Notes: a model not told the origin generated them from the letters alone. Shown: positions 25,357 to 63,364, numbered from the stretch's first letter. The stretch is 64,000 nt of DNA from Rhizodiscina lignyota (GCA_010015805.1 ML978122.1:186001-250000), one strand, 5' to 3'. Numbers and translations are program-made.

Positions 25357-28300
25357 ATGGCGAAACGACACGTTGCTGCTGATGATACAGCTAGCCATAA
25401 TCGAGATCATAAGCGCCAGAAGTTTGTCTCCTCTGGGAAGAGTCCAGCAGGCCCGGAAACTGTAACATCGGCGCGGCATCTTCAATTCTTGTTGAGTTTC
25501 CAGCAAGATGCGCCGCAGCAATTGACAGTCGGTAAGCTTATATAGCCTGTTTGACCAGTCTCACTTGCTAAACCTTCTTTCCTAGGTATCCAGAGCTTCC
25601 GGAATTTCCTCAATTCCATCCTCTACCCTCCCGAGTCAGACGATGATATCGGCGCGAGAAAAGCGATCCTTGTGGAATTCCTACAATCACAGAAACCCCG
25701 AAATGCAGACGACGAGCATATATTCCTTGAGAGCCTGATACAAACATGGAGCTATGCTTCACAAACGAATAACAGTGGCCTTGTGGGCGCTGCAACTGCT
25801 GTGCTAGCTCTGCTACTGAAGCTCTTGTCTAGCCAACTGGATCTGCACGAACATGGCGTGAACCTATGTCGCACCATACTTCAGATACCCCAGCTTAAGC
25901 TTCTGTCACGCAGTTTGACTGCCCCGAAACATAATGAATTCGTCATCTCTCCGGCCCTGAGACTTCTTACCGAAGTTGTGTCGTTCGACGGTGGGATATT
26001 TGCAAAGAGGCTGTACTCACATCGCGAGTTCGCCTTTGACCCGCAAGTAATTGCTCGCAACATTAGTAACAAAGGCGCATCAGAGGACCGCGATCCGGCG
26101 AAACCATCACTAAGATCAAATACCATCAAGTATCTCCTCGCCAACTTCAAATATCAGAATGAAGGCGCGAAGGCCGATATTATCAAGAATGGCAACATTA
26201 GCAGGTCTCTCTTTGCCCACCTTGTTGAAGATGCGCCTGAACTCGTCAAGAACATACTCCAAGTGCTCAAGACTAACGTAATCCTCGATGAGGACGTCCC
26301 GCGCTCGAGCAAATCGTATCTCTTCGACGATCGTAACCTTGCCAGTATTGCAGGGGTGCTTAGAAAGCGACACGCCGAAGACCAATCTGACGATTCAGGC
26401 AAGTCTGTTCAACAGGTTACTTACGAGTTCCTTATTTTGGTTTGCACGACACCAAACTTGGGTGTGCTTCGCAACAGCCAAGGGTGGTATCCGCCTAGCA
26501 CTGTCCAGTCACATCAATCGGAGGATGAGACAAATGGTGCTTCCGTCGACCTTGGCTTGGACGGTATCGATTGGTATAGCAATTTCATCGGCCGTGTGCC
26601 TGTTCGAAATACGGCATTGGCTTCCTTCCTGCAAGTACTACGGCCATACTCCAACGAGCTCGAACAGCAACTTCTCCTTGAGATCTTCAAAGCCTCCCCA
26701 GAACTAGTCGCGGACTACTTCTTCAAGAAGGCGACTTTCTCCTTCGATCCAAAGCTTACCGCGACCTGGATTGGTTACTCGTCATTCCTGTTCTCGACAG
26801 TTCAGCTCCCAATTCCTCTCCATTTTGGACTACCCGATGGCTTCGCAGCAGCTCCGCCTCCGGCATCAATTGTCGTCGAGAGTATCCTGCCGCAACCCCT
26901 CACTCAGAAGGTCCTCACAAGATGCCTAAATCAAACGTCCGAATTGATATCTTTCTTTGCAACACGGATTTTAGTAGTAGCGCTCCAGAAATTAAAGCGT
27001 GTGCTCAAAATGTTTGATAAAGCAGCTTCAGCAAAAGGGGCCCTCTGGGCTGAAGCAACAAAGAGACTTCAGTCAGAAGTTGCCCAGAGATGTGTACCAA
27101 TGAAAGACTTGATGATGCTCTTTCGAAAGACATCACCGGAGAAAATCATGCAATATGAGGCTACCACGAGATTACTTTCCCTGTATTATGATGTCCTGCC
27201 TCTGGTTGCACTAGAAGAGAAGCTCGATGCCTCAATTTCCCTCACCAGCGCCTTGGAGGACATTGAAAAACAGACGGAGGAAGGCGAGCTTGTTCAGATG
27301 CGCATGATAACTCTAGGACACTTATTGCATATCGCTCGGCATACGCAGGGTATGCAGTGGTGGAAGAAGCCTGATACCCTGCAGTACTCACCTTTCACAA
27401 CTTTGTTGAAGTTGGCTTCCAATTCGAAAACGTACTCCTCGGAAGTAGCCGCTATCCTGGAGTCGATCGTTGACGAGACCGCGATATTGCAGACAAAGTC
27501 GAATCCGTCAGCTCTGATGGCACTTCTCGCGAGTCTGAGGCCGAGGGACGATGTTGAAACCTCCGCAGAGGTCATTGGATTCTTGGACTCCTGTCTGACG
27601 AGATTTATGAAGAGGCCGATCAAATATGAAGATGACTTGGACGCTCTAATAGCGGACGAGATCCCAGGGAAGAAGAGAAAGTCCGACCCGATTATCCTTA
27701 GTGTCTCTCTGCTAGCAATTGTGGAACAAATCTCCTTCGTTGAAAAGGCTAAGCCTAAAGCCATTAACGATGTAGTGGAATGGCTGGCTAAGTTTCTAAA
27801 CTTTCTGACGCAGTGCGGCGAGAACACAACCGCGTTAAAGGCAGTTCGTGATCGAATCGTAGAGTCTGCGTTGTCATCAAAGAGCGCGATTCGAACATTG
27901 AATGATGCTTTCAAAAGAGAAGAACAACTGGGAGACTTTCTGGTTGGTCTCAAGCACGATGTTGCTGTTCCGGAAATAGACAAGATGGAGGTGGAGCATG
28001 CTGCCCTGGATTTTTCCCAGTATTGGAAAGAAACACGAGTACCTCAAGAGGATGAGAAGCACAATGGCCTCAACCGATGGACGCAGAAAGACGTCGAAGA
28101 AGCCATCGAAGATGGTCACATTGAAGCACTACTCTTATGCCTCAGTTCCCGTGACGAAAGCATCAGCCGCCAAGCTCTCACGAACGTGCGAAAGTTCATA
28201 GTGAAATTGGACGCATCAACTTACGAAGAGCGGGAGCAACTCTCTCTCCTTCTCAACGAATTCGTCGAAACAATCTCGCAGCGTTCAGAAAGTATGCCTG

Positions 28301-28857
28301 TACCCTATCTTGCGACGACATTCACAAGCGCCACTCTCCGCGTCTTGACTGACCCAACGCACTGCATGTATGCGAAGATCAACAAATTCCTCAACCGTGG
28401 GCCTGCGTGGACGATTTCGAAACTTCCATCGTACTGGGCCCAGCACATCCTGCTCGAGCCGCCGGAGCTGGATGACGCGCACTATCAGGAAGTGTCTTGG
28501 ATGCTCGACTGGCTTTTCGATGGACTCCGGACTCCAGAGGACATGAACAGGCTGAGGATATGCGGCACGTTTGAGCGGATTCTGTCTCTTTATTCCGCTG
28601 CTTGCGTGACGAAGTCTGTGAAGGAGAGTATCCTGAAGATTGTGAGTAGAGCGACGAGTGTAGAGGGCGGGAGCACGACCTTGGTGACGAGGACGGGCAT
28701 TTTGAGTTGGCTTGATGGTATGGTCGCTGTTCAGAATGGGGATGAGAGCTTGCTGAAGGCGCTAAAGCAGAGGATCTGGGACACGTGTGATCAGGGGAAG
28801 GTCATGGAATGGAGTGGTGGGGAGGTGCGCAAGTTGGTGCAAAAGGATATAGTGTAG
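25357..28857 (+). CDS. URB1: Nucleolar pre-ribosomal-associated protein 1 (Urb1/Npa1)
   Basis: Large helical protein with LRLLTEVVSFDGG, PELVADYF, FDPKLTATWIGYS, ESILPQPL, HCMYAKINKFL and TLVTRTGILSWL; intron 25532-25585; RRPE-like AAAATTTT at 25261 upstream. Confidence 0.88.
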
Positions 28858-30844: not shown

Positions 30845-33040
30845 ATGGCGAGTTCTCGAAGCCGCAATGGCAGTCCCTCGAAAAGACAGAGCATCATGTC
30901 CAACGACGATCAGGATGTAATACCAGTGTGTTGGACCTTCTCTAACCTGCTACTGTAAAAAGCAGCACCACACAGCCATCTAACACGTTTGCTTAGACGC
31001 GTCAAATCGAAGCTTTCTCCCGTAAGGTCACCGCGACCGCGAACCACCTCATAGGACCCCTAGGAGACGCAGGCGTGAGCCAGCATTACCAGAATGCCCT
31101 GAGCGACATACACCGCGAGCTACGGCGGCCGAACCTGCAGCGCTCCATACTCAGCTTCACGCAGACCTCCCCCCGTGACCTCATCCGCTCCAACATATCC
31201 ATACCAGAAATACAGCACCGTGCGTTGAGCTATGTACCTGACGAGCTACTTGCCAACATTCCGGAGAACAGTAGCACGTACAGCCTGTTTCAGGGGTTTC
31301 AGGCGACGCAGCCAGAGGACGAGAAGAGACATCACCACCACAAGCATTCGAGGCGTCATTCAAGGGGGAGAAAGCTGTTGACGGAAGCAGACGAGGAGCA
31401 GAAAGGACCACCCGAACTTACACATCTGAAGAATGAGAAGAGGAGTCTAAATCACAGATTGGAGATGCTGGGGATTCGGAAGAATATGTGCAGCACGGAG
31501 ATTCGAGAGATTGACACGAAGATCGCCAATCTTAATACCATGCGTAAAATTGTGCTGGATCGACTTGCGGGGCTGGAACAGGAAGAGATGGATCTAGAGC
31601 AGGACATACTTGGCGTGGACAATAAACTCGAGGATCTAGAAGAAGAGCTGGAGGACGCTGCAGCGCTGGCGCAGAAGATGCCGACAACGCCAACAAAGAG
31701 CGCCGTAGAGGAAGAGGAGGGGACGGACGAATTCATGTCGGAGTCAATATACCAGAAACTACCGTCATCTGCAACCTCATCACCAAAGTCAAGACGAAAA
31801 CGACCCGTTCGAAGAATATCAATGCCCATCCTCCACGAACATCTCGAAGCGGGCTCGAAAATAAAAGAACTCCAAGCCCACAACGACACCATCACAGCAC
31901 TCGACTTCGACGCTCCCTTTGGAACAATGGTCACCTCCGCCCTCGACGACACCGTTCGAGTGTGGGATTTAAACGCAGGCCGCTGCATGGGCTTGCTCGA
32001 AGGCCACCTCTCCTCCGTTCGCTGCCTACAGGTCGAGGACAACATCGTCGCAACCGGCTCCATGGACGCCTCCATCCGCCTCTGGGATCTCAGCCGTGCG
32101 GAATACAATCCCCAAGACCAGCCCGCAGCCCACAGCAACAAAGACGGCACAACCAACGACGACGACGATGGCCTCGCCTTCGAAGGCAATCCCGAAGATG
32201 CGCCTCCTCCACCTCCACCGAGCAGCATGCAAGACTGCCCGCTCTTCACCTTGGAAGCGCACGTCGCCGAAGTCACAGCGCTACATTTCCGCGGCGACAC
32301 CCTCGTCTCCGGATCGGCGGACAAAACGCTGCGCCAATGGGATCTTCAAAAGGGCCGCTGCGTGCAGACGCTCGACGTCCTCTGGGCTGCGGCACAGGCA
32401 AGTACGCTTGCGCCATCCACGGTTTCTACTTCCGATAGCGCGGCTGCTACTGCTGGGAGTGGGTGGGCGAAGACCGGGCGCTACATGGACGCGGAGGCAG
32501 ACTTTGTCGGCGCGCTACAGGTCTTTGACGCGGCGCTCGCATGTGGCACTGCGGATGGGATGGTTAGGCTATGGGATTTGAGGAGTGGGCAGGTGCACCG
32601 CAGCTTGGTTGGACATACCGGGCCGGTGACGAGTCTGCAGTTCGACGATGTATTTCTAGTTACTGGAAGTGCGGATCGGAGTGTTAGGGTGAGATGCTTT
32701 CACTATTCCCATTTCTACGTTTGAATGATGCTAACATTGAAAACAGATATGGGACCTCCGCACAGGCTCCATCTTCGACGCCTACGCTTACGCTCTCCCT
32801 ATCACATCCATGATGTTCGACGCACGCCGTATCGTCTGCGCTGCCGGCGAAGACGTCGTCAAAGTATACGACAAGACTGACGGCCGGCACTGGGACTGCG
32901 GTGCCGGCACGGTGGTCCACCCGGGCGAGGAGGTCGGGTTTGAGGGCGTGAAGGCGAGCGTCGTGGAGAGAGTGAGGATTAAAGAGGGCTACTTGGTCGA
33001 AGGGAGGAAAGATGGCATGGTCGGTGTGTGGAGCTGTTGA
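30845..33040 (+). CDS. MDV1: Mitochondrial division protein Mdv1/Caf4 (N-terminal extension, coiled coil, WD40)
   Basis: YSLFQGF Fis1-binding segment, coiled coil, WD repeats ([49 protein letters not shown]), ends GVWSC*. Introns about 30917-30996 and 32689-32746; start tentative. Confidence 0.92.
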
Positions 33041-34142: not shown

Positions 34143-36667
34143 TCAGCGATAGACGTAATGTGGCTCTTGCCGAACAAGATGATCAGAGTGTCGAATAGGC
34201 TCGACAATCTCTTCACGTCGATATGGGATTCCCAATGCGGGTAGGTCAGAACGAGAAGCGAGTGCAGTGACCGTCTTGTAGGAAGACAGTGCAGGCTCGA
34301 GGCCCGGATCACGAGGATCGTAAGCCTCAATGTGGGCTTGCTTCTCGCGAGCCTGCGAAGCATAGTAACGATCAAGATCATGGGGTCGGCCATGAGCGAG
34401 AGAACGAGGGTCTGGACGACGCTCGAACTCCGGAACACGATCAGTCACGTTGTACATGACACGCTTGTCCGTGGCAGATCGCTCAATGGCACGGTCAAAC
34501 CCGACCGGCACATCAAGTGGCTGATGATGCCGTCTTGTCGGCGACTCAGCCAGTGGCTCAAGGCCGAGGAACACCGGTTGTTTGCCACGCTGGGTAGGGT
34601 AATAGGCTGTCTCTGCAACGTCCTGAAAGTGGGACTGGCGAATCTGGCCTCTGTGTGCAGGTGGGCTCCCCGATAAGTCGATCACTTCAACACCTCGTGT
34701 AATGCGGGCATTGGGTGCCTCTGCGAAGGCAGCAATATGCCGTTTACGGGATCGCTCTCCTTCCCGGTATTGTGGATAATCCTGTTCGGGCCATGATTTC
34801 CTCTTCGTCACCATAGGTCGGACTTGATTTGTCCTAGGGATACGATCATCTCTATCGCGTGGTGGCTCAGGCATGTCAGCATCCGAGGATATCACAATAG
34901 TTTGACCATTCTGATCCCTGGCAAGGCGCATCCTTGGGACAGGCAGTTCGTCGCCTTGATGTCGTCGGCCAGATGTTTGATGCTCCACAGATGGCAAGGC
35001 AATATCTGGGGAAGCCCGTACAATCATTTCAGGACGTTCCGGGTCATAAGCCTGTGGGTTAAGTCCTCCCGTCTGCCGTGGATAACGGATATGGTCATAA
35101 ACTGGTTGAACTAGATGGACCTGTGGACGATTGGAATGACGGTAACGGTCCTCTTCACGTAAGTAGTAATCACGAACGTAAGGCTCCGCGGCGCGGGGCT
35201 CAGCATAAAAGGGCCTGGTTTCCGTGTAGATGTTGCCCTGCCTGGCGGTGTGTTGCTTCTGTTCAATGGTAAGCCTATATTCCAACTTGACATCCACTAC
35301 CGCAGCGAATGAAGTGGCAGTCAAACATTAGAACTCGCCTGAGTAAATAGAGGCTCTCCGTAGATCACTCTATGATGATCGAGATCGTCGCCCCTGTATC
35401 GTGTCAATTTGTCCATCTCAGATTGTCCAGGGAGGACAGACGCGTTGTCGATAACGTAACCCCCCCGCAACATTGGCTCTTCCAGTTTGCGGCGAGTTGG
35501 AACAAGCTGGGCTCGCTCATCATAAGAATCCTTGGTTTGCGGAAGATGCCGAATACGTTGGCGCCGAGATGGATAAAGATAGACACGATGGGATGCCGAA
35601 CCCGCAGAGCCATGCTCAGCAAGCTGATCATCCCCTTGCGCAGCATGAGAAACGAATTCAATGCTTGTATGAGATTCGTTGTCGGCCTGGATGGACCCTT
35701 CGTTTTCATCATCGCTCTCATCATCCGAGTCAATGACGATGAATTCGCGAAAGACTTCCTCCATTTCCCCGTGTTTAGAGTCTTCTCCTCGCCAAGCTTT
35801 TAGTTGCTTCAGCGTATGAGGCTCGACAATTGCTCTCGCCTCTTTATAGCCCACGCTCTTGAGGAGATTGTCATAATCGGTATACTTATGTCTAACAAAT
35901 GCGCATACGGCGAGCTGCACCTGGCGAGTGAGAGGCATGTTTGCGGTACCGACTCGGTTTGAGCCCTGGATGAAGGTGTTAGAATAAAGTGCGATGGAGG
36001 TTGTGATGAGTAGATACCTCTTTCCACGCATGCGTTACAATGTTTTCTAAATCCGCCTCGGGAATCCTAGGGAAAAGCTCCTGGATGGCTGTGCGAATTT
36101 GCGCTTTCTCCCCCTTGGCGCTGTGCCGCTTGAGACTCCGATCCAGTGCAAGATCGTATTTCGAAAACTTCCCTCCACCAAGCGCATGGTAGCCCAGCCA
36201 AACGCAGGACTCTCTGACTACATCGACGGGAAAGTGATTTCCAATGCGGTGTATATGGTAAGAGACTTTGCCGGGGTCCAAATGCGCTTTATTCACTGGT
36301 TCCGTCTGCAGAATGTTTAGCATTCAGTTTGCGTACGTCGGTGGAGTAACGTACGCTGACAGTCTGAAACTGTAGATTTTTCTCTTGGCACTTCTTTTTG
36401 CAGCGCTCGGTGAGGTCAGGAAAACCGACTGGGACAAACTCGTAACCGGCTGGAGGAACTTTGTCGTAAGAGGCCTTTCTGATGGTTAGAATGCTTTCGC
36501 CTAGGAAAAGAGTAGAGGGGAGTACGAACAATATAGCGCAGTGTTTTCTTCTCTTGCGTGACGGTTTCGAACACGATCTTCAGTGGCTTTTTTTTGCGGT
36601 GGTTAGTACGAGCGCTCATGGAGCGCTTGTGGCGCGCCACTCGGGCGCTGCTGTGAACTCGGGTCAT
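34143..36667 (-). CDS. DUF2293 domain protein with low-complexity C-terminus (multi-exon)
   Basis: PPAGYEFVPVGFPDLTERCK and AIQELFPRIP..IVTHAW..GSNRVG..VQLAVCAFVRHKYTDYDNLL match DUF2293; ATG 36667 (MTRVHSS). 3' exon structure less certain. Confidence 0.8.
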
Positions 36668-39534: not shown

Positions 39535-40456
39535 ATGGGTACGAAACGCAGTCGCACGGAGAGCATGGATGCCTCCACAGCATCCGGCGGTTCTCCATTC
39601 ATGCCAATGTTTGAGAAGTTTCGCCTCGAGCTCGACGAACATCATGATCGACGAGAGCGAGTCATCAAAGCGTCCCGAGACGTGACAGCGGCAAGCAAGA
39701 AGATGTGAGATTTGCGCTCACTTCCATTAAATCACATTGTGCTAAGTATAGTTAGCATCTTCGCGTTACAGCGGTACGTCTGTCCAGTTGCAATATTCCG
39801 ACTCTCCTTCCAACAAAACCGATTCTAGGATACGCACCGTTGGCAAACCGATTCCTCCAGGAGTGCGAAAGGGATTCACCCAGCATGAGGAAGTGATCAG
39901 ATCCCAATACACAAATATATCTAAGGACATGCAAGGGCTTAACTCGTTTCGATACCAACGCCAAATATCTGGCGGAAACCAGGAGTTGCTCGAAGCCCTC
40001 ACCTTTCAGCATTACCTAGAAACTGAGCAGCTCCTCTCTTATCTAGAGGCTAATGACCGGGTGGCAGGACTGGGTGGCCCGGAGTCTCCTATACTGCTTA
40101 CTCCAGATGATTACCTCCTGGGCGTTTTTGATATGGTTGGTGAACTCATGAGACACGCTGTGACGGCAATGGCAACCGGAGAATTGAGTGGTGCTGCTTC
40201 CTCTACTGGGAATGAAAATATAGCGAGTCGTGGCATTTTAGCAGATATGCGTGATCTTCGCAGCTCTCTAGAAAGACTTGAAGTCGATGATGGTTTTCTA
40301 TCGAGGGACATCGAAAAGAAGATGCCGGTTATGAAGCAATGCGTCGAAAAGGTCGAAAATGCAGCTTATGGACTTATTGTCCGCGGAAGCGAACGTCCAA
40401 AGGGCTGGATGCCTGATACCGACCATGTTGGAAAGGGAGAAGTCGAGGGGTATTGA
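39535..40456 (+). CDS. Translin-associated factor X (TRAX), with 18-nt micro-exon
   Basis: ELDEHHDRRERVIKASRDVTAASKK-IIFALQR, SGGNQELLEA, DYLLGVFDMVGELMR, KVENAAYGLIVRGSE; micro-exon 39756-39773. Confidence 0.92.
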
Positions 40457-43277: not shown

Positions 43278-46200
43278 ATGCCTACAGCAATATCCCAGGC
43301 TCGTCGAGAAAGTCCGACTAAAGCAAAGCCAAGTCGCTTAATCGCCTCGGCCGACTTTGCGTTTCCGAGCGATCACCATCTTCTCGTTATCACCGAGAAG
43401 CATGTTTGCTGCTGGAACAGACGAGGACTCACCGCGATCTTCAAGTCTGGCTCTGCTGGAATACTGGCTGCAAAGGAAGCAAAAGATGGAAGTGGACGAT
43501 TGGCGATTGCGGATAGCCAGAATGTGCTTCTTCACAATGTCTCGAGGGGCATGGATCGTAGCTATAGGCTGAAAGGAACAGAGGTACGCGCAAAGACGAG
43601 GCGCTCAATTGGAGTCCTGGAGTTAATTATGGATCACAGGGTCAGATTCGTCTCGTCGAGTTCTCTGCCGATTCGAAAACCCTCTTCTTCAGTACAACGC
43701 TGCAAAACGCCGTTCAATCGTATTGCTTTCGAGAAGGCCGTCTTCTCCCTCCCCTTGACGCCCACGAGTCGCCTCCAACGGCCATAGCAGTCTCTGCGAC
43801 TTCACAGCTTCTCGTGTCTACCTCAGAAAGCCCACCAACGGTACAAATACAGAATCTGACGCTGCACACTCCTGCGATCAGGCTACAACCACGCGCATCC
43901 AGCTTTCCCGTCGCAGTAGTGTCGTTCCATCCAGAGCGGCCGGGTATCTTTCTACTGGCCTTCAAGGACGGCACTGTTGCTGCGTACGATGCGACTCGCA
44001 TCCAGCGTGCAAATGTGCACATTACCGCGCGCCAACCTATGGGCAGAACCGGCAGCGATGGAGAAATTGGACACTTCATTCACCTTTGGACTGTAGCGAA
44101 CCGAGGAGAAAGGTATCCTGAAAATGTCCTTGATGCTGCTGTTCTGGGAGAATACGATCCGGGTACGAAGACCGCAAGCATCGGCGCTCATGCTGTTGGC
44201 ATTACGGCGGCGGCGTTCGTACCTGGTTACCGTACTCGCGCCGTTTGTGCGGGTGCAGATGGAAAGAGCAGATTGATAGACTTCGCCGAGGGTGGAAAGG
44301 TGCTCCGAACATGGCATGTACGAGGGCCGGCAACGAGTCTGAGTATCCTACCATTAGAAGCATCCACCCTCGGGAGCCGGGTAGATGGGACTGAGGAGGG
44401 CTTGGACGTTGGTAGAGCAAGGCGATCAAGACCATCATTAACTGGAGAATCGACCGAAGACAAGACTGCGAACAACATCATCGCAATCGGAAGATTGGAT
44501 GGCAAAGTTTTATTATATGACTCTATCGGACTCCTGCTCTGCGAAAAGACCGTGGCTCTAGCTGCTGGGCGTGTCGTCTCAATCGAATGGATGAAAGGCC
44601 GAGGTCCCAGACCATCGAAGGGGTCTGAGCATGTTCACTTCTCGGATGAAAGCAACGTAATCGATCTAACCTCTGTCCAAAATGAGATAATTGGACACTC
44701 TAGTCATGTCTCCGGTCGCCGGTCATCTGTGGTCAAGAATCAGCGTACAAGCAAAATGGACGGTCTTGAGCGGAACCCCTCCACGAAGTCCAAAGATACA
44801 CTAATCAGCTTGGATGGCTCAGACAGAGTACTTAGAGGCCAGCACCATCGCCACTCAACTGACAATACAAGTGACGAGGCGAGTACTTTGCTAGATGATA
44901 TGGACGCGACCGTTCGGCATGACCCTAGGCACAACGGAGTTAGCAATGCTCCTTCAGCAGCAAATGCGAACTATATGGATCTCTTCTCTCCAATAAAATC
45001 CGTTCGCACACCAACACGTCCATCACCACAACGTGTTATCACAGGATCGCGTTCACGGAACAGACCACGCATCTCGAGCTCGACCTTTATGGACAGTGCA
45101 ATCGGAACGATATCAAGACATGGTTCCTCGCCAATCGTTGACTTAAGTCCAACAGCGGTGCCGACGGCACCAGGACCTGCAAGGCCATCCTCACCTTTTG
45201 TTCAAACAAGTTGGTCTTCTATACAAGAGGCAACCAATCATCCCGATTCTCCACCGCCGCAAAGTGCTACGCGCTATGCAGCTCAAGGGGTAACTAGGCG
45301 ACAGTCCAATCGCAAAGCGTCTGTTGTGCGTTTCTCCAATGGTAAAGGACAGCCCGCCACGGTTCCTGCTCCTCTACCTGCGGCCCGTACGCATAGGAGA
45401 AAATCAGGCCGCGCCTCACTCCAAAAGAACATGCCTAAGGGCGTACAAATGCCTGGCAAGTTTCCAAGTTCCAGCACCTTCGAGCTGACAAAGCTCACAC
45501 CGCCCAGCTCTTCCAGTGCCAGCACAGATAAGATCAACGAGAGTGCTCGTATACTGGCAGACCTTAAACGAGTTGAAAGGATGGGTACTAATGGAGCAGA
45601 CCCTGGTAACTCTCGCCGTCGGACTGGACTCGCACTCTTCGCACCTTACTTGCCGCAGCGCCGCTCGAAAACCAAGGTGGAGCCTTCGCTATCACAGTCA
45701 ACATCTCTGCAACCACCATATCAGGGTGCGACCAACAGTGACGTATCATCTTCGGACTTTACTCTGGACGACTCTTCAATGAGTGAGGATATTTGGTTGA
45801 CTTCAGAGTCTGAGGTAGACGTGGATCAGAGCAATAAATACAGCAGTCGCAAACCGCGAAATAGGCGTGAGGCACACAGCTCTAACACAGCGAGACCAGT
45901 ACGCTTTCGGAGAGTGTCCAATGACTTATCACGAGCACCATCCTCCCAAGCAACATCAACTTCAAGAATGCCGAGCGCGTCCTCAATTTATTCAAGCCTT
46001 GAGACTGATGGCGACGTTTCTGAATCGGATCTCACGGTCACAGCCACATACCAAACTGCACCGACCTCTCAAGTTGCCCTTCCAGAAACCTACTCAAGTA
46101 CCTCGGACGTGTCGCCACGGAGCAAGGCCTCAGTGGCAGAAAGTGAAGTCCGAACCCCTTTACGACGGAGGCCTTCACTAGCAGCAGAACTGCCTCCTGG

Positions 46201-46780
46201 CACCGCAGATTCCCCAGAAGGTCCTGTCGTCGTGGAATCATTCTTTCCAAGAAGAAGTAGCCTGGTCAACTTGAAGGCGCATCAGTCCGACGGTAGCCCA
46301 ACAAAGCCGAGCGCAAGGAAATCCAGGGCAGTGCTAGGCGAAATCTCCGGAAACGCCGATCGCATCTCGGAAGGAACGGAGCCCAGCTCGCGTTCTTCTC
46401 CAACACGCAGGCGGAAACGGGGAGATCACAAGAAGCACGTGCGGCTGGACCTCTGGGAGGACCTTGAAGACGGCGCGGAAGCTCGGCGGAAGATGGAGTC
46501 GGACACATCCTCGACAGCGACGAAGTACGAGATTAAGCATGACCAGCACAATATTCCTGATGAGGACTTCGATATTCCATCCATTCCGTCCATTCCTAGT
46601 AATTACAAGGCGCAAGGCTATGGCAACGATCGTGCGGATAGCAATCGTTCAAGGTGTGCTTGTAATGGAGTTTGTTGCAATGAATTGAGAAAGGAGGTGC
46701 GGGATTTGAAAGAAGAAGTCAGGGTACTGAGAGGTCTCATGCAGGGCTTGATCATTACAAGTCCTGGGAAGAGGAGGTAA
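43278..46780 (+). CDS. N-terminal WD40 propeller + Ser/Pro-rich linker + C-terminal coiled coil (NEDD1/GCP-WD-like)
   Basis: Intron 43584-43639 joins exon 1 in frame to the 988-aa ORF. WD-like blades (LDAHESPPTAIAVS, VSFHPERPGIFLLAFKDGTVAAYD, IAIGRLDGKVLLYD); terminal ELRKEVRDLKEEVRVLR. CDS is secure, NEDD1 identity is inferred. Confidence 0.75.
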
Positions 46781-47207: not shown

Positions 47208-49879
47208 TTACTTCTTCTTCCTAAACCTGAACTTCAAGTCATCGCCACTCCCATCGCCATCATCATCGTCATCCCTCCTGCTCTTTCCAATCGTACGGCG
47301 CTTGGTCGCTTGCTTCTCTGCTCCCTGAGGAGGACCAGCAGCCTTTCGCTTGCTTGCGAAGGTAAGGTCGTCATCCACTGGCTCCTCGTCATCCTCCTCT
47401 TGCACCACCCTGCTCTTTCCTGCTGAACCTCTCTTCCTTCCCTGCTCTCCGCTGGCCTGGCTCCGCCCGGTATTGCCACGCTGCGTGACATTCTGGCTTG
47501 TACGTTGGGTCGTCCTTTGAGTTGTGTTGAAGAAGAGGTCTGGACTCCTGCTTTCACGACTCGTGTTGTTGGGCTCGAGCCAGTACTCGTCACCGGTACC
47601 GTTGTCGTTCGTCTTCGCCACCTCCAAACCAACGATGACTGTACTTGGCCGCGGTAGCGGATCGTCCTGGTTATCTCCTTTCCTGATCTTCCTGAAACGC
47701 TTGAAGTTCTTGCGTCCATTCCAGCGTTCGTCCCATCGCTCACTCTGTTCACCCGCTTTCGCACCGACCACGGAATCGCGCTCACGCTGGGGTAGCACAT
47801 CCATCTCTTCAATGACAGCGCACTCTTTCATCTGACTCACTGTCATACCTGCCATCCCCGCCATTGCTTCCTGAAGTTGCTCCTCTTTACGGTCAGCTTC
47901 TTCCTCCTGCTTTACCCGTCTGTTCCTGGCTATGCCGAGGATGTCCAATTCGCCCTTCTCTTCCAACTTCTTTCGGACCTTCTGGACCTTCTCTGTCGCT
48001 TTCGCCAATTCGCTCTTGGGCTTTGGTGGAGGCGCATTGGCCACTGGTCCCACTTCAGCTCCTGCACCAGTGCGGCGCTGCTGCTCTAGTTTTCGACGTT
48101 TCAGTTCTGTGGCAGCAGGAACTATCTCGTCAAGAAACGCTTCTTCATCAATGGGATCTGGCGATGCAGGTCGTTTCCTTGAGTTGCTAGTTGCCGGCTG
48201 ATTAGGTCGGGCTCGCTGCGACACAATCTGTGATGCGCCGCTTGCTGCGACAGACTCCTGAATTGGTGGGTCGTTAACAGGCATTGACTCGTCGATGTCG
48301 TCTGCATCAGCATTTGCCTTGGGAAGCCGTGAAGGGTCAAAATCATCAAAGCCTGCAAACCGGCTCTTGTATGGCGCACGATACGTTTTGCGACGCGCTG
48401 CAGGCGATTCTGGTTTGGTGGCAGCATCAGCAGAAGTACCCACAAGAGCAGATGCCGCGGATGTTGTTTGCCGTTCTCGTTGGGGCACTTGAGATTCTTG
48501 TATGCTTCTCTGCAACCTTGTAGAAGCTACGAAATTTAGTAATGCTTTTCCAAAAACATAGTTCAATGTGAAACATACCCGAAAGCTCTGGACGGGGAGG
48601 AGCGCTTGAATCAATGACTATTTCTTCCTGTAGAGGCGTTTTGAGAGGTTTCGCGTCGTTCATTAAGATAGCATCGAGAAATTCGTTCTGCTCAATGGAG
48701 CGTTGATCAAGAGCAAGCTCAATGTCACGGCCGATATTGACTTTCCATGCGTCGTCGCCATCTTTACCTCTTGGAGCTCTAACAACGACAAGCTTTCCTC
48801 CAAGTCCTTTTGCATAGGTCACGAAATCGTTGACGGTAGTTTGTGCTTCTTGAAACTCGTACAATTGGGCTTTGCCGCTGCCGCCATTCACAATGTCGCG
48901 GAGCGTTTCGAATTGTGCTTGATCGCAGAAGATGAAAGTGTAACCAGAAAAGACATCCATTCTGCCGGGATTCGGCGCAATGAATGAGTCAGGTCGCGGG
49001 TTCGGTTCTTTTCCTGCTGGAGGCACGAATTTTGCGGTGTCTGGGAAATTGTTCTCAAAGTCCTCTTCGAGTGCTGACGTTGATGCTGCTTGCGCTAAAG
49101 CATCCACAAAGCCTTCTGTGACGAGGTGTTTTGCGGCAACAAGTGCTTGAAGGCATCTTGGCAAGTTGCGTTTGGCCGCAATGACATGTGTTGTTTGAGT
49201 TGTGTCGTAGTCGAGACTAATTTTGATGTCAAAACGCTCAACCCGCTCGCGTAAGACTTCATCGCTGTTCTTCCGCAGACTCGCCGGTGTCAGAACCACC
49301 GGAAGCCATTTGATACTGACAGGAGTTAGTTCACATGTGTACTATTGTCGCGAATGGAGAAATACCGAAGTTTTTGCTGATAGTTGCCTAACTGAACAAC
49401 ATGTTCGTGCTTGGCGAGTTCCACACTCGCATCCTTGAACTTTTGGCCATCGAGAGTCGTTCCGATCTTGGATTGATCCGTAAGCAGAATCTTTGCCCGA
49501 GCATCTAACTCCGTCTGCATATAGAACATGTTAATGCTCAACCCATAAAAGTATACGAAGGATCCATACCGCAGAGCCTCCCTCAACCTCCGAAATGGAA
49601 ATGATGAGATGCTTGCGCGAGACAGTCTTATCCTCGATGACATATGAGTCTAAGACTATGTTAATAACATAAAGCACGCTTCCTTTCCGAGGTTTAACTG
49701 GCACGTACGGTCTTTGGCTGTAACGCTGGCATCTGGCGGTTTCGTCCTCCCAAATAAGTAGGTCGAGCCCGGTTTGAGCCAGCGTTTCTTGCCTACACAA
49801 AGTTAATGTTCCGCTGGGAACTCGGAGAGGGTATGTTTATACCTCTGAACAAATCTCCGTCGCATTCTAGAATCCACAT
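47208..49879 (-). CDS. NBS1: Nibrin/Nbs1 (Xrs2; ScaA/RcaA): FHA + BRCT, MRN complex subunit
   Basis: MWILEC..WLKPGSTYLFGRT, VSRKH and SKIGT (FHA); TTHVIA..CLQALV (BRCT); Mre11-binding KNFKRFRK; acidic C-terminal DDLKFRF (Tel1/ATM-binding type); several introns. Confidence 0.93.
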
Positions 49880-50243: not shown

Positions 50244-51296
50244 CTAGTCCATATCCTCTAAGCTTGAATGTGTGGCCTCTCGCGTGTCGATTTCACCAAC
50301 CATGATCCCGACCAGACACTCTCCCAGCATATTCTCCCAGTTTACCCACGGATGCACCTCCATGAATAGCTTTTCCCCATCCTTACCGGCCGCTCTTCGA
50401 ATCTCTCCTTCTCCTCCAGGGTGGTAGGGGACGTATGGGGTCAAGTTGTAGACCTTGCCCTGGTAGCTCGCCCACACAGGCCTTCCTTTGCGCCCGTTGT
50501 ATTGCTTCAGGAGAGATGGTGTCACACGTTGAAGAGAGTTCACGCCTGAGAGGTTCGCTGAGGTCCGCTGAAGATTCGCCCAGTCTAGCGGCGAATGGCC
50601 GGGAGAAAGGAGCACCCTTTTACGCGGATTCGGTATTTGAGTGGCGGCTGAGGGTGGCGGCGCAAGCGAATTAGTGGGAGGACCACGGTTAGGTAGAGGA
50701 CCAGTGCTTGGGACTCGGAGAGAGTTTGAAATTGTGGGTGGGTGTCGGTTCGGCTGAGGGAGTCGTGGCGGTGGTGGAGGAGGCATGAGTTTCGTATCGA
50801 TGAGCTTATTGCCATTAGCAAGAGCAGCAGGTCCTAATGGCAGTCGCTGTTGTAAGGTAGATGGTGCGGATGCGCGCTGTGCAGAATTCATTGCTGGGAA
50901 AGATGGTGGAGGAAGCTCATCGATATCGTCTTCGCTATGACTGCTCTTGGAATCATCTTCCTCGAGTGTGAAGGTTGGTACTGATATTGGCGGGCCATTT
51001 GCGGCTTTGGCCTTCGGAGTCGACGCTGGTGAACTCGGCGGCATCTCGTCTGTCTCAACAGAAGCAGTTGGTGGTGTTTGAAGTGCTCCATTTGGAGCCT
51101 TATCGCCTTGTGTGTCGCGAACGTCAACATCTTTGGGGTCGCCATCCTCGTCTTGAACTGCCTGGGGGTAATCTGCGCCTGCGCTGGCGACCGCACCTGG
51201 CGTCCGCTGAGCTAAGGTCCGCAGCCATCCTGGATGGCGATAGCGATATGCACATACGGCGAAGGCAATAATGAGAGCTGAGAACGCGACAAGCAT
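50244..51296 (-). CDS. Cytochrome b5-like heme/steroid-binding protein (Irc21-like), N-terminal hydrophobic anchor
   Basis: RKRVLLSPGHSPLDWANL, VYNLTPYVPYHPGG, AGKDG..LFMEVHPWVN; both heme-ligand histidines present. Confidence 0.9.
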   Translation of the reverse strand: MLVAFSALIIAFAVCAYRYRHPGWLRTLAQRTPGAVASAGADYPQAVQDEDGDPKDVDVRDTQGDKAPNGALQTPPTASVETDEMPPSSPASTPKAKAANGPPISVPTFTLEEDDSKSSHSEDDIDELPPPSFPAMNSAQRASAPSTLQQRLPLGPAALANGNKLIDTKLMPPPPPPRLPQPNRHPPTISNSLRVPSTGPLPNRGPPTNSLAPPPSAATQIPNPRKRVLLSPGHSPLDWANLQRTSANLSGVNSLQRVTPSLLKQYNGRKGRPVWASYQGKVYNLTPYVPYHPGGEGEIRRAAGKDGEKLFMEVHPWVNWENMLGECLVGIMVGEIDTREATHSSLEDMD

Positions 51297-51504
51297 TGAA
51301 AGCGAATGTGGAGACTGTCGAAGTTGAGAGCGGCAGGGCTGAGATGCGACTGCGGATGTGGCGTCACCAATTCAAGGGTCTCGCTCAATTTGCGGCTCTT
51401 CGGTGCATGGACACCTGTAACCCACCGCCGCAATAAGCCGCCATTGCGTTGTATACTATTGTTTGTAATTTTCAGAATCAATCATTAGACAAAATCATTT
51501 AAGA

Positions 51505-55440: not shown

Positions 55441-56735
55441 TTACAACTTCGCGTGACCATTTGCATTGGTAGCTTCCCTTTCAGTTTCTTCCAGAAATTC
55501 ATCGAGAAGCTGCAGTCCTTTCTGCAGATTCCCGGTCGTAGTTGTGAAATGCATACGAACTCTTCCCCTGAATGCGTCCTTCAGCTCTCCAAACTCAAAG
55601 CAGAGAGTGGCGGGTGCCAGAAGCACATTCCTACTCTCGAAAAGCTGCTTGCAGAATTCAACGTCGTCGACAGCCGCACCTGTATGCGGGTCTTTAAACC
55701 TAACAAAGCCCACAGCGCCAGCGGTCGGTGGCACCCAGTCGCATGAATCTTTATGCTTATCGACAAATGCTTGAATGAGGCTGATGTTCTTCCTTGCCAG
55801 AGCGAGATGCTTGTCGAGTATACCCGATCGGCATCGCGGACTAAGCGCTTCTGTGGCAATAGCCTCATCAATCAACGACACAGATGAACAAGACATGACT
55901 CGATAAGACATGAAAGCCTTTCGCAGATGTGCGGAACGAGTTGCAATCCAACCAATACGGACACCCGAAAGCCCGTACGATTTCGAGAGTGAGGAGGTCA
56001 CCACAACCTTTTCGTAGTCCAAGTCATGACGTTCGATGAACGAGTTCGGTACATCGGAGGTGTGGAATAGTGGATGGAATATTTCGTCACAATGTAGTAC
56101 GACATCGTTCTTCTTGCAGAGCTTGATGAGGTCCTCCTGAACCTCGGTGCTGAAATGAGTTCCGGTTGGGTTCACTGGATTGTTCAGCATAATAAGTTTG
56201 GTTTTGCCAGGGCGCATCAAAGCTTCCAGCTGCTTTAGATCCAAGTGCCAGTTATTCTCAGGGTCAAGATGAATGTACGAGATGTCGCAACCAATGTGCT
56301 CTGGCTCTTCGATACATGGTCCATAAATTGGATATTGGCAGATTATATGGTCGCCGGGTTTAAGGAAGGATTGATGAACGATGTGATTCGCTCCAGTGGT
56401 CCCATTGGTGACAATGACCTCGGCAGGTGAAAGATGTGAGAGCTCATGGGTGTACGTGGCGGCAATCGTTTCTCGCAGCTTCGGATTGCCTTGCGCAGAG
56501 CCAAGGTTGAATTTGATGTCATTGAATTGGAAGGCGGCTTGGGTACTTTCCGGAGACTTAGACAGCTCGACCAATTCGTTCAGGGACAAGCCAGGCGTTG
56601 CACTACCGCCGATGACGGTCGTCGTGTCGGGATCAGCAGAATGTAGCCACTATATTCACATCGTAAGTCAAGCATTTCATCAACTGGAAACAAACATACA
56701 TAATAAAGTTTATTGAATCCGACGTCGCCGTCCAT
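55441..56735 (-). CDS. PLP-dependent class I/II aminotransferase-fold enzyme, 2 exons
   Basis: GNPKLRETIA, VIVTNGTTGAN, LNNPVNPTG, CDEIF, SSLSKSYGLSGVRIGW (PLP lysine), terminal RVRM; exon 1 MDGDVGFNKLYY then GTATGT intron. Confidence 0.92.
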
Positions 56736-59273: not shown

Positions 59274-59909
59274 GGAACGGTCTCGGCAGTGTACAAACTC
59301 AATGCAGTCATGAACCTTCCCCTGGCGAACGGCGGCTTACGAGCAATCAAACTCGTCGAAAGCCACCGCCCTCGCTCCTTGTGCGACCGCTGGTTGGATG
59401 TCTCCAGTACCATGTATTCCAGACCTCGCAGATCCACGGCCTTGGGATTGATGTTGTGATAAGGAAGCTCATGCACGCACGTATGGGGAAAGGGTTCGAA
59501 CTGACTCGACCATCCAGCTCGGAAGCATGGGACCGCTAGGCCGCGCGGAAGCCATGAGAGGCGCGGACCAATTATGATAGAGCACCATGCATCGGGGACG
59601 GCGGCGCGGAAGATCACTGGCTCGCACGGCCCCAAAAGTGGAGGGGGGTAGCTTTTCCGCTAGATTAAAATTTTAACCTTTGAACCGGGGCGGATGGACA
59701 GCTAGCTCCCGTGCATAGCATGCAGCGAATAAGATCGACAATGCCCTGGTATGGCGGATCTCCATCCACGACATGGCTAGCTAGTAGATACTTGGCCGTT
59801 CCTGCTCCTTCCGCTTTATCTCGCTCACCAGAGCTGCGACGATTTTCATCCCTTCTGTTAGGTATTGGGGGTTCTACGGCCAGAAGAAGGACCAAGCTCT
59901 ACCTTCGCG

Positions 59910-60629
59910 ATGGCAACAGAGCACGACACAGAGAAGGAGATGTGGGATGATCTCAACATTGACTACGAAGTAGCATACCAACGCAATCCTCTCAAAATCG
60001 CATGTGTGGAAAAGGCGATTTCTCTGCTCCAATCCGGCTCACGGGTGCTTGATGTGGGCTGCGGCACCGGCATACCGGTCTCACAGATGCTTGCGGACGC
60101 CGGTATGGAGGTCAGTGGCTGTGATGTCGCGCCCAATATGGTAGAGCTTGCTCAAAAAAGAATTGCGGGAAGCTTCGTTACGGCAAACATGATCGAATTT
60201 CAGCCTCAGGGAGAATTCGCCGCCATCTTCATCATCTACTCCCAGCTCGGTCTTCGCTACTCGGAGTTTCACGCTGCCGCGTTCAAGCTTGCGAAGGCGC
60301 TGCAACCTGGAGGATTGCTAGTAATTGGCCAGTCACCGAGCGATGAAAAGGTCCCAGAAAACGACCCTGCGTTTGATGAAACAAGGACCTACGCCGACAA
60401 CTTCAATCTTCCGTTCTGGGGCAAGCCGTTCTACACCTTGCTGTTCAGTCGGCAAGGACAGCTTGATTTCCTGCGCTCGATGGGATTGGAAACTGTGTAC
60501 GACAACGTAGACTGGTTCAAGCCGGACCACCCGAAATGCGATGCGGAGCATCAGCAATATGTAATTGCTCGCTGGTCGGGTGATAGGCCATTGTCGGAAC
60601 CGAAGCCTCTGCCAAAGGCGATGGAATGA
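59910..60629 (+). CDS. Class I SAM-dependent methyltransferase
   Basis: VLDVGCGTG motif I, GCDVAPNMVELA, LQPGGLLVI; first ATG at 59910. Confidence 0.92.
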   Translation: MATEHDTEKEMWDDLNIDYEVAYQRNPLKIACVEKAISLLQSGSRVLDVGCGTGIPVSQMLADAGMEVSGCDVAPNMVELAQKRIAGSFVTANMIEFQPQGEFAAIFIIYSQLGLRYSEFHAAAFKLAKALQPGGLLVIGQSPSDEKVPENDPAFDETRTYADNFNLPFWGKPFYTLLFSRQGQLDFLRSMGLETVYDNVDWFKPDHPKCDAEHQQYVIARWSGDRPLSEPKPLPKAME

Positions 60630-61192: not shown

Positions 61193-63364
61193 TCAACCGC
61201 CACCAAAGTCTCCAAACCAGATACTATCATCTGGTCCTTTGCCGCTCGTGACATTCTTTTTACTGCACATGTCGCGCATTTCTTGGGGCACTTCCCACTT
61301 CTCCATCTCATCTGTCCTAACCGCGAACTGCATTAGCAAACCTGCTTCTGCGTGCCACGTGATGTGGCAATGGAACGCCCAAACACCAGCATTATCAGCT
61401 ACAAATCTCAGCAGAGCCCAGCCGAAGCCATTCACTGTCGCAGTATCGCGATATAATGGGTTCTTCAGATTTACTCCTGTCGCAGTGCCCGCATCCACAG
61501 CGCCGGTACTGGGAAAGGATGACGCTGCTCCATAGTTTAGATTTGAGACATGGTTAGGTGGATAACCCTTGCCCGAAGCCAGGATCCAGAATTTGTGGCC
61601 GTGTAGATGAAACGGGTGTGCGCCGTCATCGAAATTGGAGATAAGGATGTCAATGGTCTGGATGCCTTTGGTCTGATAAACCAACTCGGTCTTGGTATGG
61701 AAGGCGTGGGAATTGATGCCTGCATTGAGAGCTCCTGGTGATGATGACAGCGCGGGGGTGTCACGACCAGAGGGGGGAAGAGAGGGAGGTCGAAAACTGC
61801 CAAATGGATTCACAAAGGAGATATTATGATCGCGAATGCCATCGACGAAGCGGTTTAGAGATGGTGAGGTGACGGGAGCGCGCCAGCTGGAGGTGTTGAA
61901 GAAGCCACGACTAAGCCGCCAAGCGCCGATTTCGAAGTTCGAGCGGAAGTAGAGTTGCTGATCTGCTTTGGCCGGAGGGGGAATCGGAATCACAGGCTCA
62001 AGCTCTGTCGTATTAAGGTCGTGACATTGAAGTTCAACGATATCAGGCCAATCGCGGCTTTTTGGGGTAGGCGGAGGGGAGTCCAGGGCGGTGCTAGAAT
62101 TAGTATAGCGGACAACTGCACGGATTTCAGGAGAAAGTTCCTTGTTGCCTTGTTTAAAACACCCTGTTACCATCCGTGCCCTGAGCCAGTAAGATTCTTG
62201 ATCCGTGTGGTTGGTGGAGATGACAATGCTGTAGCGCTGCGCAGGCAGGATGAGCAGACGGTGATAGAATTTTGGGATAAGATCTGTGCCATCCGCTTCC
62301 GTCACAGCAAACTCGTGCTCGTCTAGTTGGACTTGAAACTCTGCAAAAGCACCAGTGTTGATGAATCGTAACCGATGACTCTGACCAGCTTCGAGGTCTA
62401 GACGTGGCATCTCTACTCCAGCGGTGGAATTGTCACATTTTCGGTTCGGCAGATCATCGCAATTCCTTATGCCTTGACCGTTAATCAGAGCCGACCCTGG
62501 GATAGGCTCTTTATTCTCACGATCGGGCTGGAGATATTGGTACAAGAGATCACCGGATAGATCGTAGTAATGATCGCTGACCATTACGATACGGTCGGTG
62601 GCATATTGGATCTTCTGTAATTTCCGCTCGTCTTTCGAATGGACGACGAGAGGGCCATAAACGCCGTCGGATGACTGTGCAGCATGATGTGCGTGATACC
62701 AATATGTCCCGGATTGGCCGTCAACTTTGAACTTGTACGTAAACTGGGTCCCGGGTGCGATGGGACACTGTGTAACACCGACGGTGCCATCCATGAAGTT
62801 GCTGCCATTCTGGTACATTCCATGCCAATGAATTGAAGTTGAATTGACTGCTTGATTGTCGATATGCACGACAATGGTGTCGCCTTCGTTTACTTCGACC
62901 AACGGACCTGGAAACTGCTCGTTGATGATGATCATGGGCCGATAGACACCATCCGGGTTCCTCTCTTGGTCCCTAATTGTCCAAGAATATTCTCTCGTCT
63001 GCGATGGGGCATCGAAGTCCCAGTTCATATCGAGAAGGTAGCCATCGTTTGACGTGTCGCTCTCAGATGCAGTCGGAGTTGCCAGCTTTGTAGCATGACG
63101 AGAAAATGCGGAATATGCTGCGGCGAAGGACAGTACTGAGAATATGACCAGCAGAGCCAAAGATACGACAAACTTAAGGGAGAACCAGGAATCTTTGTAT
63201 CGCGAGAACGAATCGTCGAGGAGAAGCTGCTTTGGTGTGGACTTCAGCGGACTGGCATCGCGGGAAGCCGCCACGACGGTCTCCTCGTCGCCATCATCGC
63301 TGCTGTTCAACAGATGCTGTGCAGCTTCCACGTCTTCGGCCTCGTTCCTCGCATTTTCGTGCAT
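61193..63364 (-). CDS. Multicopper oxidase (AA1, laccase-like) with N-terminal membrane anchor
   Basis: All four Cu motifs: HWHG, WYHAH, HPFHLHGH, HCHITWHAEAGL (axial Leu); hydrophobic segment FVVSLALLVIFSVLSFAAAY after an acidic N-terminal tail. Confidence 0.95.
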   Translation of the reverse strand: MHENARNEAEDVEAAQHLLNSSDDGDEETVVAASRDASPLKSTPKQLLLDDSFSRYKDSWFSLKFVVSLALLVIFSVLSFAAAYSAFSRHATKLATPTASESDTSNDGYLLDMNWDFDAPSQTREYSWTIRDQERNPDGVYRPMIIINEQFPGPLVEVNEGDTIVVHIDNQAVNSTSIHWHGMYQNGSNFMDGTVGVTQCPIAPGTQFTYKFKVDGQSGTYWYHAHHAAQSSDGVYGPLVVHSKDERKLQKIQYATDRIVMVSDHYYDLSGDLLYQYLQPDRENKEPIPGSALINGQGIRNCDDLPNRKCDNSTAGVEMPRLDLEAGQSHRLRFINTGAFAEFQVQLDEHEFAVTEADGTDLIPKFYHRLLILPAQRYSIVISTNHTDQESYWLRARMVTGCFKQGNKELSPEIRAVVRYTNSSTALDSPPPTPKSRDWPDIVELQCHDLNTTELEPVIPIPPPAKADQQLYFRSNFEIGAWRLSRGFFNTSSWRAPVTSPSLNRFVDGIRDHNISFVNPFGSFRPPSLPPSGRDTPALSSSPGALNAGINSHAFHTKTELVYQTKGIQTIDILISNFDDGAHPFHLHGHKFWILASGKGYPPNHVSNLNYGAASSFPSTGAVDAGTATGVNLKNPLYRDTATVNGFGWALLRFVADNAGVWAFHCHITWHAEAGLLMQFAVRTDEMEKWEVPQEMRDMCSKKNVTSGKGPDDSIWFGDFGGG

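Follow-up and report, generated by a model that had tools for sequence, protein, structure and literature searches.

NEDD1 (GCP-WD), as described in human (9QVM/9QVN), Xenopus (9I8M/9I8N), Drosophila (Grip71), and Arabidopsis, is the closest known counterpart of the gene reported here. Residues 571–660 of human NEDD1 form a tetrameric bundle, which attaches to four MZT1:GCP3-NHD modules in gamma-TuRC (the gamma-tubulin ring complex); F622 is a core residue of this tetramer (PMC12094035). In two further papers, the NEDD1 propeller binds augmin or microtubules (PMC12748588), and microtubule-dependent amplification of microtubules requires the Cdk1 site S411 (PMC9836086). According to Masuda 2013 (PMC3771951), NEDD1 'is not conserved in fungi', and a later preprint reports that within fungi only chytrids have it (bioRxiv 10.1101/2025.01.03.631223). 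Here we analyzed 64,000 nucleotides (nt) of DNA from Rhizodiscina lignyota (GCA_010015805.1 ML978122.1:186001-250000; the window), a species of the Dothideomycete order Aulographales according to its database lineage. A two-exon gene in this window encodes a product of 1148 amino acids (aa; 102 + 1046 aa), which an initial annotation made from the DNA alone had proposed as an ortholog of NEDD1. We consider it probable, from sequence comparison, that the gene is the Dothideomycete representative of a Pezizomycotina family of strongly diverged NEDD1/GCP-WD orthologs.

The family is linked to NEDD1 because it has three collinear features, namely the tail helices, a propeller that aligns in register, and an FSP motif in the linker. 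As judged from the alignments, these three NEDD1 parts occur in the same order in the fungal proteins, and two of them have statistical support. The same order of parts is seen in the window protein, whose linker would be open to phospho-regulation, as that of NEDD1 is. In an AlphaFold2 (AF2) model built with 26 homologues in the alignment, 28 strands formed seven four-stranded blades at aa 33–421, with a predicted local distance difference test score (pLDDT) mostly of 80–94 and disordered loop inserts at aa 255–287 and 344–376. The following stretch, aa 437–1108, had a pLDDT below 50 almost throughout, with a short helix (aa 737–748) as its sole structured piece, and the chain ended in a helix at aa 1113–1141. 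The linker (671 aa, 437–1107) is rich in Ser (17.3%), Arg (9.8%), Pro (8.3%), and Thr (7.6%). The N-terminal WD40 propeller, the long Ser/Pro-rich disordered linker, and the short terminal coil of the initial annotation, which had quoted ELRKEVRDLKEEVRVLRG (aa 1117–1134), were thus all recovered, and the NEDD1 reading built on them is supported by the three features above.

Comparison of the family with NEDD1

A word-indexed protein search found 113 homologues of the window protein at E<=1e-3, and a profile search of 1.84 billion representatives gave 610 matches at E<=1e-3, 514 of them at E<=1e-10. The best 150 of these 610 matches all came from the Pezizomycotina family. From the members we prepared an alignment of 26 full-length proteins that is dominated by Dothideomycetes and has the window protein as its first row (A1), a profile built from 41 full-length proteins of Pezizo-, Orbilio-, and Lecanoromycetes (A3), and a tail-only profile of 23 sequences and 90 positions (A4). 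Searches of the PDB covered 177,635 distinct sequences.

In the Pezizo-, Orbilio-, and Lecanoromycete proteins, the C-terminal ~70 residues are helical and follow the pattern EMxxQFxxQ...(V/L)REENxxLR. When A3 was searched against the PDB, the best natural matches were NEDD1 of human (9qvm_W; E 1.1e-6, 31 bits) and of Xenopus (9i8m_U; E 2e-5), and the next natural match was at E 0.0099. The sole entries above NEDD1 were four designed consensus WD40 proteins, which reached their scores by summing many weak repeat matches. With A4, Xenopus NEDD1 ranked first (E 3.9e-8) and human NEDD1 second (E 7.1e-8), and the third match was at E 0.0036. The A4 match covers human NEDD1 592–658, at the extreme C-terminus on both sides; F622 corresponds to the Phe of the fungal EMxxQF, which is nearly invariant, whereas F603 is aligned with a Met and D602 with a Glu; the likeness extends to the REENxxLR end. 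A4 scored 60–90 bits on the Pezizo- and Orbiliomycete members and 20–65 bits on most Lecanoromycete members. A score of at least 20 bits was reached by 90 of 267 stored family proteins and by 17 of the 17 Pezizo- and Orbiliomycete rows of the WD-domain tree described below, in which all 17 rows and the basidiomycete outgroup bear the NEDD1-type tail. These results indicate that the tail of ~70 residues found in the early-branching Pezizomycetes and Orbiliomycetes, and also in Lecanoromycetes, is homologous to the helices by which NEDD1 binds gamma-TuRC via MZT1:GCP3. In the ESM Atlas, the best feature match of a Pezizomycete tail (0.77) was an unnamed 182-aa cluster found mostly in Basidiomycota, which is a lead at most, and its structure matches were unrelated helical proteins. 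A third tail type, CKNCRxLLKxKRxLQxEV, was seen in a subgroup of 1150–1200 aa (P0153, P0172, P0175, P0238, P0239; ENA and Logan records) that does not have the strict FSP motif.

For the propeller, the comparison was made through basidiomycete proteins. A search with A4 of a collection of 5.8 billion proteins (longer proteins, 8000 candidates scored, E<=10) returned 27 family proteins. The first outsider was a 196-aa fragment named 'protein NEDD1' by JGI (E 0.25), and six weaker ones included two proteins entered in the database as 'WD40 repeat' proteins, P0287 (Sphaerobolus stellatus; 746 aa, E 3.3) and P0288 (Gautieria morchelliformis; 793 aa, E 7.3). In the PDB, P0287 matched human NEDD1 first (E 8.2e-9), with its propeller (41–390) on 41–390 and its tail (667–744) on 580–657. 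For P0288, NEDD1 supplied three of the top four matches, namely the Xenopus and human proteins and the propeller chain 9pzm_I (310 aa). On the strength of these searches, both proteins are identified as NEDD1 orthologs. They are the closest relatives outside Pezizomycotina that we retrieved, and they share with the family the whole propeller in register (~21% identity), an FHP..R blade motif, an FSPPK motif, and the NEDD1-type tail. They differ in being much shorter and in having NEDD1 as their own best PDB match, unlike the window protein.

A3 scored 52.5 bits on P0287 (E 3.5e-13 at PDB search size) and 35.9 bits on P0288, in each case over a propeller stretch and a linker/tail stretch, whereas natural WD40 proteins of the PDB reached at most 13.5 bits. 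Generic propellers such as WDR5, WDR61, UTP4, and others have the same fold (template modeling score, normalized to target length, 0.7–0.8), but they have neither the linker motifs nor the C-terminal helix. In HHalign, the WD-only part of A3 aligned with the basidiomycete NEDD1 propellers over 304 columns (P 1.1e-16), and that of A1, with the window protein first, over 303 columns (P 2.3e-12). A canonical WD40 protein encoded elsewhere in the window (Table 1) was used as a decoy and gave P values of 0.84 (global) and 0.005 (local) against A3 and of 0.7 and 0.009 against A1; its scores on the family models were 0.3 and -4.5 bits. These results indicate that the family propeller is nearer to NEDD1 propellers, via fungal NEDD1, than to other WD40 families. 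In the profile check proposed with the initial annotation, the propeller thus matched basidiomycete NEDD1, but not, at a detectable level, the human chain 9qvm_W. Two alignments in series (window family to basidiomycete, basidiomycete to human) also reproduced the three blade pairings of that annotation: the window blade LDAHESPPTAIAVS...STSES falls on human LKDHKDQVTCVTYN...SGSLS, AAAFVP...CAGADGK on ICFSP...TIGLDKR, and IAIGRLDGKVLLYD on LAIGSSRGKIYQYD.

The third feature lies in the linker. In A1 the propeller is well conserved and the linker is otherwise unalignable, with short conserved islands (YMDLFSPVK, RPRxSSxTF, NxKILADLR, GLALFAPYM, DIWLTS, FPRxSSLSP). The best conserved of these is DLFSPIK (aa 549–555), with the family form LFSP[VI]K; L550, F551, S552, P553, and K555 are each at least 90% conserved. 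The pattern [LMIFV]F[ST]P[VICLP][KR] occurred in 193 of the 252 stored family members that have at least 650 aa, and in only 24 of 20000 shuffles of the window linker. A weak third HMMER segment (2.4 bits) placed the fungal FSP motif on human GDMFSPIRD, whose Ser is residue 411. In the basidiomycete NEDD1s, the equivalent position is occupied by TFSPPK and AFSPPK. The linker keeps an FSP[IV][KR] motif corresponding to the human cyclin-dependent kinase (CDK) 1 site S411; its phosphorylation is putative. Beside this motif, a basophilic RPRxSS site about 25 residues past it is conserved across classes, as are ILADLR, LFAPYM, DIWLTS, and FPRxSSLSP. None of these five motifs matched human or basidiomycete NEDD1 in any alignment; they are candidate docking or kinase sites.

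Several results weigh against a NEDD1 ortholog. A search of the PDB with the Dothideomycete-dominated A1 did not find NEDD1 at E<=10, and helical, coiled-coil-like tails can draw spurious matches. A4 gave only 0.4 bits on the window protein, and its last 100 aa found no NEDD1 in the PDB at E<=10. The A1 and A3 propellers scored at most 2.8 bits against the human chain 9qvm_W, which is no detectable match, and 9pzm_I was absent from their PDB matches at E<=10, although it was among the sequences searched. Because there is no direct vertebrate match, the propeller link rests on the two uncharacterized basidiomycete proteins. For these, BLASTP of the window protein (P0003) against P0287 was not significant (best E 0.38), and the P0287 propeller alone gave 28 bits over 100 aa with WDR61 and 27 bits over 350 aa with human NEDD1. 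The profile–profile control was a single WD40 decoy, and the next-nearest protein family appears to lie beyond the best 150 of the 610 matches. A second, canonical NEDD1 gene may exist in the Rhizodiscina genome outside the 64-kb window.

A rival explanation is a fungus-specific WD40 scaffold unrelated to NEDD1, in which the tail is a case of coiled-coil convergence and the propeller likeness is generic. The missing direct propeller match to vertebrate NEDD1 would fit it. Searches with the window protein do return generic matches: only WD40 models far below their cut-offs and one unrelated weak match in Pfam (both exons, E<=10), designed and generic WD40 proteins without NEDD1 in phmmer of exon 2 against the PDB, WDR5 and other propellers in Foldseek of the AF2 model (E ~1e-14, non-discriminating), and DUF2415 and generic WD40 clusters at 0.89–0.91 for the N-terminal 470 aa in the ESM Atlas, which is uninformative. 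We regard this explanation as very unlikely, given that NEDD1 took ranks 1 and 2 of 177,635, five orders of magnitude above the next coiled coil, with the match at the extreme C-terminus of both proteins. Chance likeness would also have to produce three features ordered as in NEDD1 and a propeller alignment in register over 300 columns, for which the decoy gave P 0.7–0.84. Coronin, POC1, and Nup159/Nup82 are also proteins with a propeller, a linker, and a C-terminal coil. These candidates and HAM-5/HamE were dropped, as the Pfam scan (E<=10) contained no such domain and NEDD1 was matched instead; in a check for FG repeats, Phe was outside the eight commonest linker residues.

The tail of the window protein

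The window protein is too diverged in its propeller for a direct match with NEDD1, its propeller carries the two loop inserts, and its linker (671 aa) compares with an estimated ~250 aa in human NEDD1 (660 aa in total). At the C-terminus, the window copy is without the helices in which F603, F622, and the acidic residues that contact GCP3 (E598/D602/E605) lie, and has a four-Cys cluster and one helix instead. Dothideomycete tails consist of a Cys cluster followed by a single helix, with the form CxCx3CC in the window protein and CxxC in Mycosphaerellales-type members. This Cys type was found in 14 of the 14 Dothideomycete tree rows with an intact end, and a 15th row of the clade has no recognizable tail. 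From the distribution of the tail types on the WD-domain tree, the NEDD1-type tail would be ancestral and the Cys type a later replacement. An HHalign comparison of 122 Cys-type tails with A4 aligned only 23 columns, at the last helix (probability 30%, P 5.5e-4). The pairing of the C-terminus with human NEDD1 that the initial annotation had drawn was therefore reproduced only weakly, and a NEDD1-like, gamma-TuRC-binding coil in the window copy was not upheld by the A4 and PDB searches given above.

We examined the self-association of this tail by folding four copies of aa 1090–1148 together, with three controls and no custom alignment. The score was 0.46 against 0.00 for the best control, with a partner pLDDT of at least 54 and at least 69% of contacts common between runs. 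In calibration, 21 of 30 proteins solved as pairs of one chain attained this score, as against none of 23 single chains (eukaryotes, 17 of 29 pairs and none of 30 single chains); the calibration was made with two copies, so it is rough for four. The predicted contacts were parallel and in register (1118, 1122, 1125, 1129, 1132, 1136) and included the Cys positions. The modeling supports, but does not show, self-association of the terminal helix as a parallel, in-register assembly. As a matter of speculation, the Cys cluster at the mouth of the parallel coiled coil may be a metal- or lipid-dependent replacement.

Because its own tail has no detectable NEDD1 match, we classify the window copy, on present alignments, as a derived variant of the NEDD1 orthogroup and not as canonical NEDD1. 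By analogy with NEDD1, binding of gamma-TuRC by the window copy is plausible; it is the weak link, because the helices with the known contacts are gone. Judging from NEDD1, the ancestral fungal protein would work as NEDD1 does. Its tail would oligomerize and dock on MZT1:GCP3-NHD modules of gamma-tubulin complexes, its propeller would anchor this complex on augmin, on microtubules, or at the spindle pole body, and CDK phosphorylation of the FSP serine (Ser552 here) would gate spindle recruitment in mitosis. In Dothideomycetes, the two-helix bundle of the tail would have been lost, with the Cys cluster and the single parallel coiled-coil helix in its place, and the window copy probably still oligomerizes.

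The replaced tail also allows a different history, in which the protein is a NEDD1 ortholog by descent whose job changed in Dothideomycetes: it would not bind gamma-tubulin complexes, and the propeller, the linker motifs, and the Cys-stapled coiled coil would form a scaffold for other partners. We judge this unlikely, although the drop in the A4 score from 60–90 bits in Pezizo- and Orbiliomycetes to nearly nothing here, and the presence of the Cys type in every intact Dothideomycete tree row, are what it would predict. It would also agree with the strong conservation of ILADLR, LFAPYM, DIWLTS, and FPRxSSLSP outside any alignment to NEDD1, and three large classes without a member among the matches listed fit a relaxed need for the ancestral role. 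Against a changed job, the propeller and the FSP motif remain strongly conserved, and the terminal helix stands at the very end, aligns weakly with the last NEDD1-type helix, and is predicted to self-associate like the NEDD1 tail.

Gene model, distribution, and neighboring genes

The gene is beyond chance because its long open frame (43568–46780, plus strand) has 1070 codons and because the homologue searches returned so many members (113 proteins, 610 cluster representatives). The ATG lies upstream in a different frame, which is joined via the intron, and the spliced product was identical in every letter to the NCBI entry 'WD40 repeat-like protein [Rhizodiscina lignyota]' (P0003). Coordinates are collected in Table 1.

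Table 1. Features of the NEDD1-like gene and other genes in the window, with positions counted from its first nucleotide.
Feature	Position	Strand	Description and basis
Whole gene	43278..46780	+	2 exons; 1148-aa NEDD1-like protein (probable ortholog); translation = P0003
Exon 1	43278..43583	+	aa 1-102, N-terminal tail and propeller blades 1-2; ATG at 43278
Intron	43584..43639	+	56 nt, GTACGC...TCACAG; excision restores the frame and yields the annotated protein
Exon 2	43640..46780	+	aa 103-1148; coding 43640-46777, TAA 46778-46780
WD40 propeller, seven-bladed, aa 33-421	43374..44596 (spans intron)	+	AF2 model, BLASTP, HHalign
Disordered Ser/Arg/Pro/Thr-rich linker, aa 437-1107	44642..46654	+	pLDDT <50, composition, conserved motifs in A1
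YMDLFSPIK, aa 547-555	44972..44998	+	putative CDK (Ser-Pro) site matching human NEDD1 S411 (MFSPIR)
Linker motifs ARILADLKRVER (predicted short helix) and GLALFAPYLP, aa 736-774	45539..45655	+	A1, AF2, collinear BLASTP segment with a Pezizomycete member (E 0.007)
EDIWL, aa 818-822	45785..45799	+	family consensus DIWLTS; W821 at least 90% conserved
Cys cluster (C1108, C1110, C1114, C1115) and terminal amphipathic helix (aa 1113-1141)	46655..46756	+	translation, AF2
Canonical WD40-repeat protein	30997..32724	+	PF00400, E 3.8e-33; unrelated to the NEDD1-like family; negative control
Nbs1-like gene (probable), two open reading frames in overlapping frames	47208..49341	-	upstream frame: nibrin (Nbs1) second BRCT domain, PF16508, E 1.9e-30; downstream frame: Lys/Glu-rich, no Pfam match
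DUF1996/WSC	1..981		Pfam
Aspartyl protease	9402..11034		Pfam
NAD kinase	12039..14018		Pfam
M18 aminopeptidase	16729..18165		Pfam
N-myristoyltransferase	23300..24196		Pfam
Npa1/Urb1	25555..28857		Pfam
DUF2293	35321..36034		Pfam
Translin	39752..40456		Pfam
Cytochrome b5 domain	50244..51371		Pfam
Aminotransferase	55441..56649		Pfam
Methyltransferase	59862..60629		Pfam
Multicopper oxidase	61193..63391		Pfam

Classes were assigned from the organism names of the listed members, with three lineages looked up. Members came from Dothideomycetes (Macrophomina, Phyllosticta, Aureobasidium, Venturia, Zasmidium, Teratosphaeria, and others), Lecanoromycetes and allied lichen-forming fungi (Lecanora, Lasallia, Xylographa, Candelaria, Sclerophora, and others), Pezizomycetes (Tuber, Morchella, Pyronema, Ascobolus, Wilcoxina, and others), and Orbiliomycetes (Arthrobotrys, Orbilia, Drechslerella, Dactylellina), and further from Xylona and Sarea. 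The word-indexed search with profile A2 reached Pezizo- and Orbiliomycetes only. Among the matches listed there was no Eurotio-, Sordario-, or Leotiomycete member and none of the names Aspergillus, Penicillium, Neurospora, Fusarium, Botrytis, or yeast, which is not proof of absence. As far as the searches made extend, the family appears large and confined to Pezizomycotina. In the protein listings, no source gives the name NEDD1 to any Pezizomycotina family member.

The window protein belongs to this family. BLASTP of P0003 against the Pezizomycete member P0241 gave E 2e-70 with 37% identity across the entire propeller, and YMDLFSP and ILADLK..LFAPYLP were covered by further segments in collinear order. 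For the WD domain, a tree with 48 rows was built from 46 family members with organism names and two basidiomycete outgroup proteins, ~230 unnamed proteins being excluded. The tree mirrors the class phylogeny, and the window protein falls inside a 15-row Dothideomycete clade with a Shimodaira–Hasegawa-like approximate likelihood ratio test value of 99. As far as these sequences indicate, the gene tree behaves like that of a single-copy, vertically inherited gene.

Two family records are unusual. P0040 is a 973-aa member with the database title 'hypothetical protein CFP56_58217 [Quercus suber]', which suggests that a plant assembly was contaminated with fungal DNA. P0222 of Clohesyomyces aquaticus (1025 aa) matches the family only from residue 280 on and has the UniRef name 'Transglycosylase SLT domain-containing protein'; two gene models were probably merged in this record.

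The Nbs1-like pair of open reading frames, probably one spliced gene, is convergent with the NEDD1-like gene, and their 3' ends are ~430 bp apart. The neighbors that could be typed by Pfam in the 64-kb window are ordinary housekeeping genes, and none of them is tied to microtubule nucleation.

Probable NEDD1 orthologs in filamentous fungi

A literature search for ascomycete or basidiomycete NEDD1 or fungal GCP-WD returned no described ortholog: the available parts of PMC3771951 and PMC6070874 give none, and those of PMC12932783, 10.64898/2026.08.03.742184, and PMC6281477 contain nothing further on fungal NEDD1. For ascomycete or basidiomycete NEDD1, the search led to a 2010 review, in whose available text the name does not occur. 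Orthology databases may already group the family with NEDD1. The initial annotation was right that NEDD1 was not identified when Aspergillus augmin was described. It had also suggested that the gene could be the missing link between augmin and gamma-TuRC in these fungi; for Aspergillus itself this is probably not so, because no Eurotiomycete member was seen among the matches listed.

We regard a wider scenario as possible but doubtful. In it, Dikarya kept NEDD1, unrecognized, in Basidiomycota and most Pezizomycotina classes, lost it in Eurotio-, Sordario-, and Leotiomycetes, and replaced the Dothideomycete bundle with a new oligomerization device, in which the Cys cluster, which might act as a zinc 'hook' between molecules or be lipidated, is fused to the parallel coiled coil. 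If this is true, losses in the classes of Aspergillus and Neurospora would account for the fact that fungal augmin seems unconnected to gamma-TuRC and dispensable there, and Dothideomycetes would couple the NEDD1 propeller differently to microtubule nucleators or to another cargo.

The finding is real but not revolutionary, and its immediate use is reduced because the main model molds appear to lack the gene. A recognizable ortholog in many ascomycete classes and in basidiomycetes would give filamentous fungi a concrete candidate for a gamma-TuRC adaptor, and the losses of NEDD1 could be dated to inside Pezizomycotina. The family would also offer a natural experiment, in which one propeller and one CDK motif are combined with two different tails.

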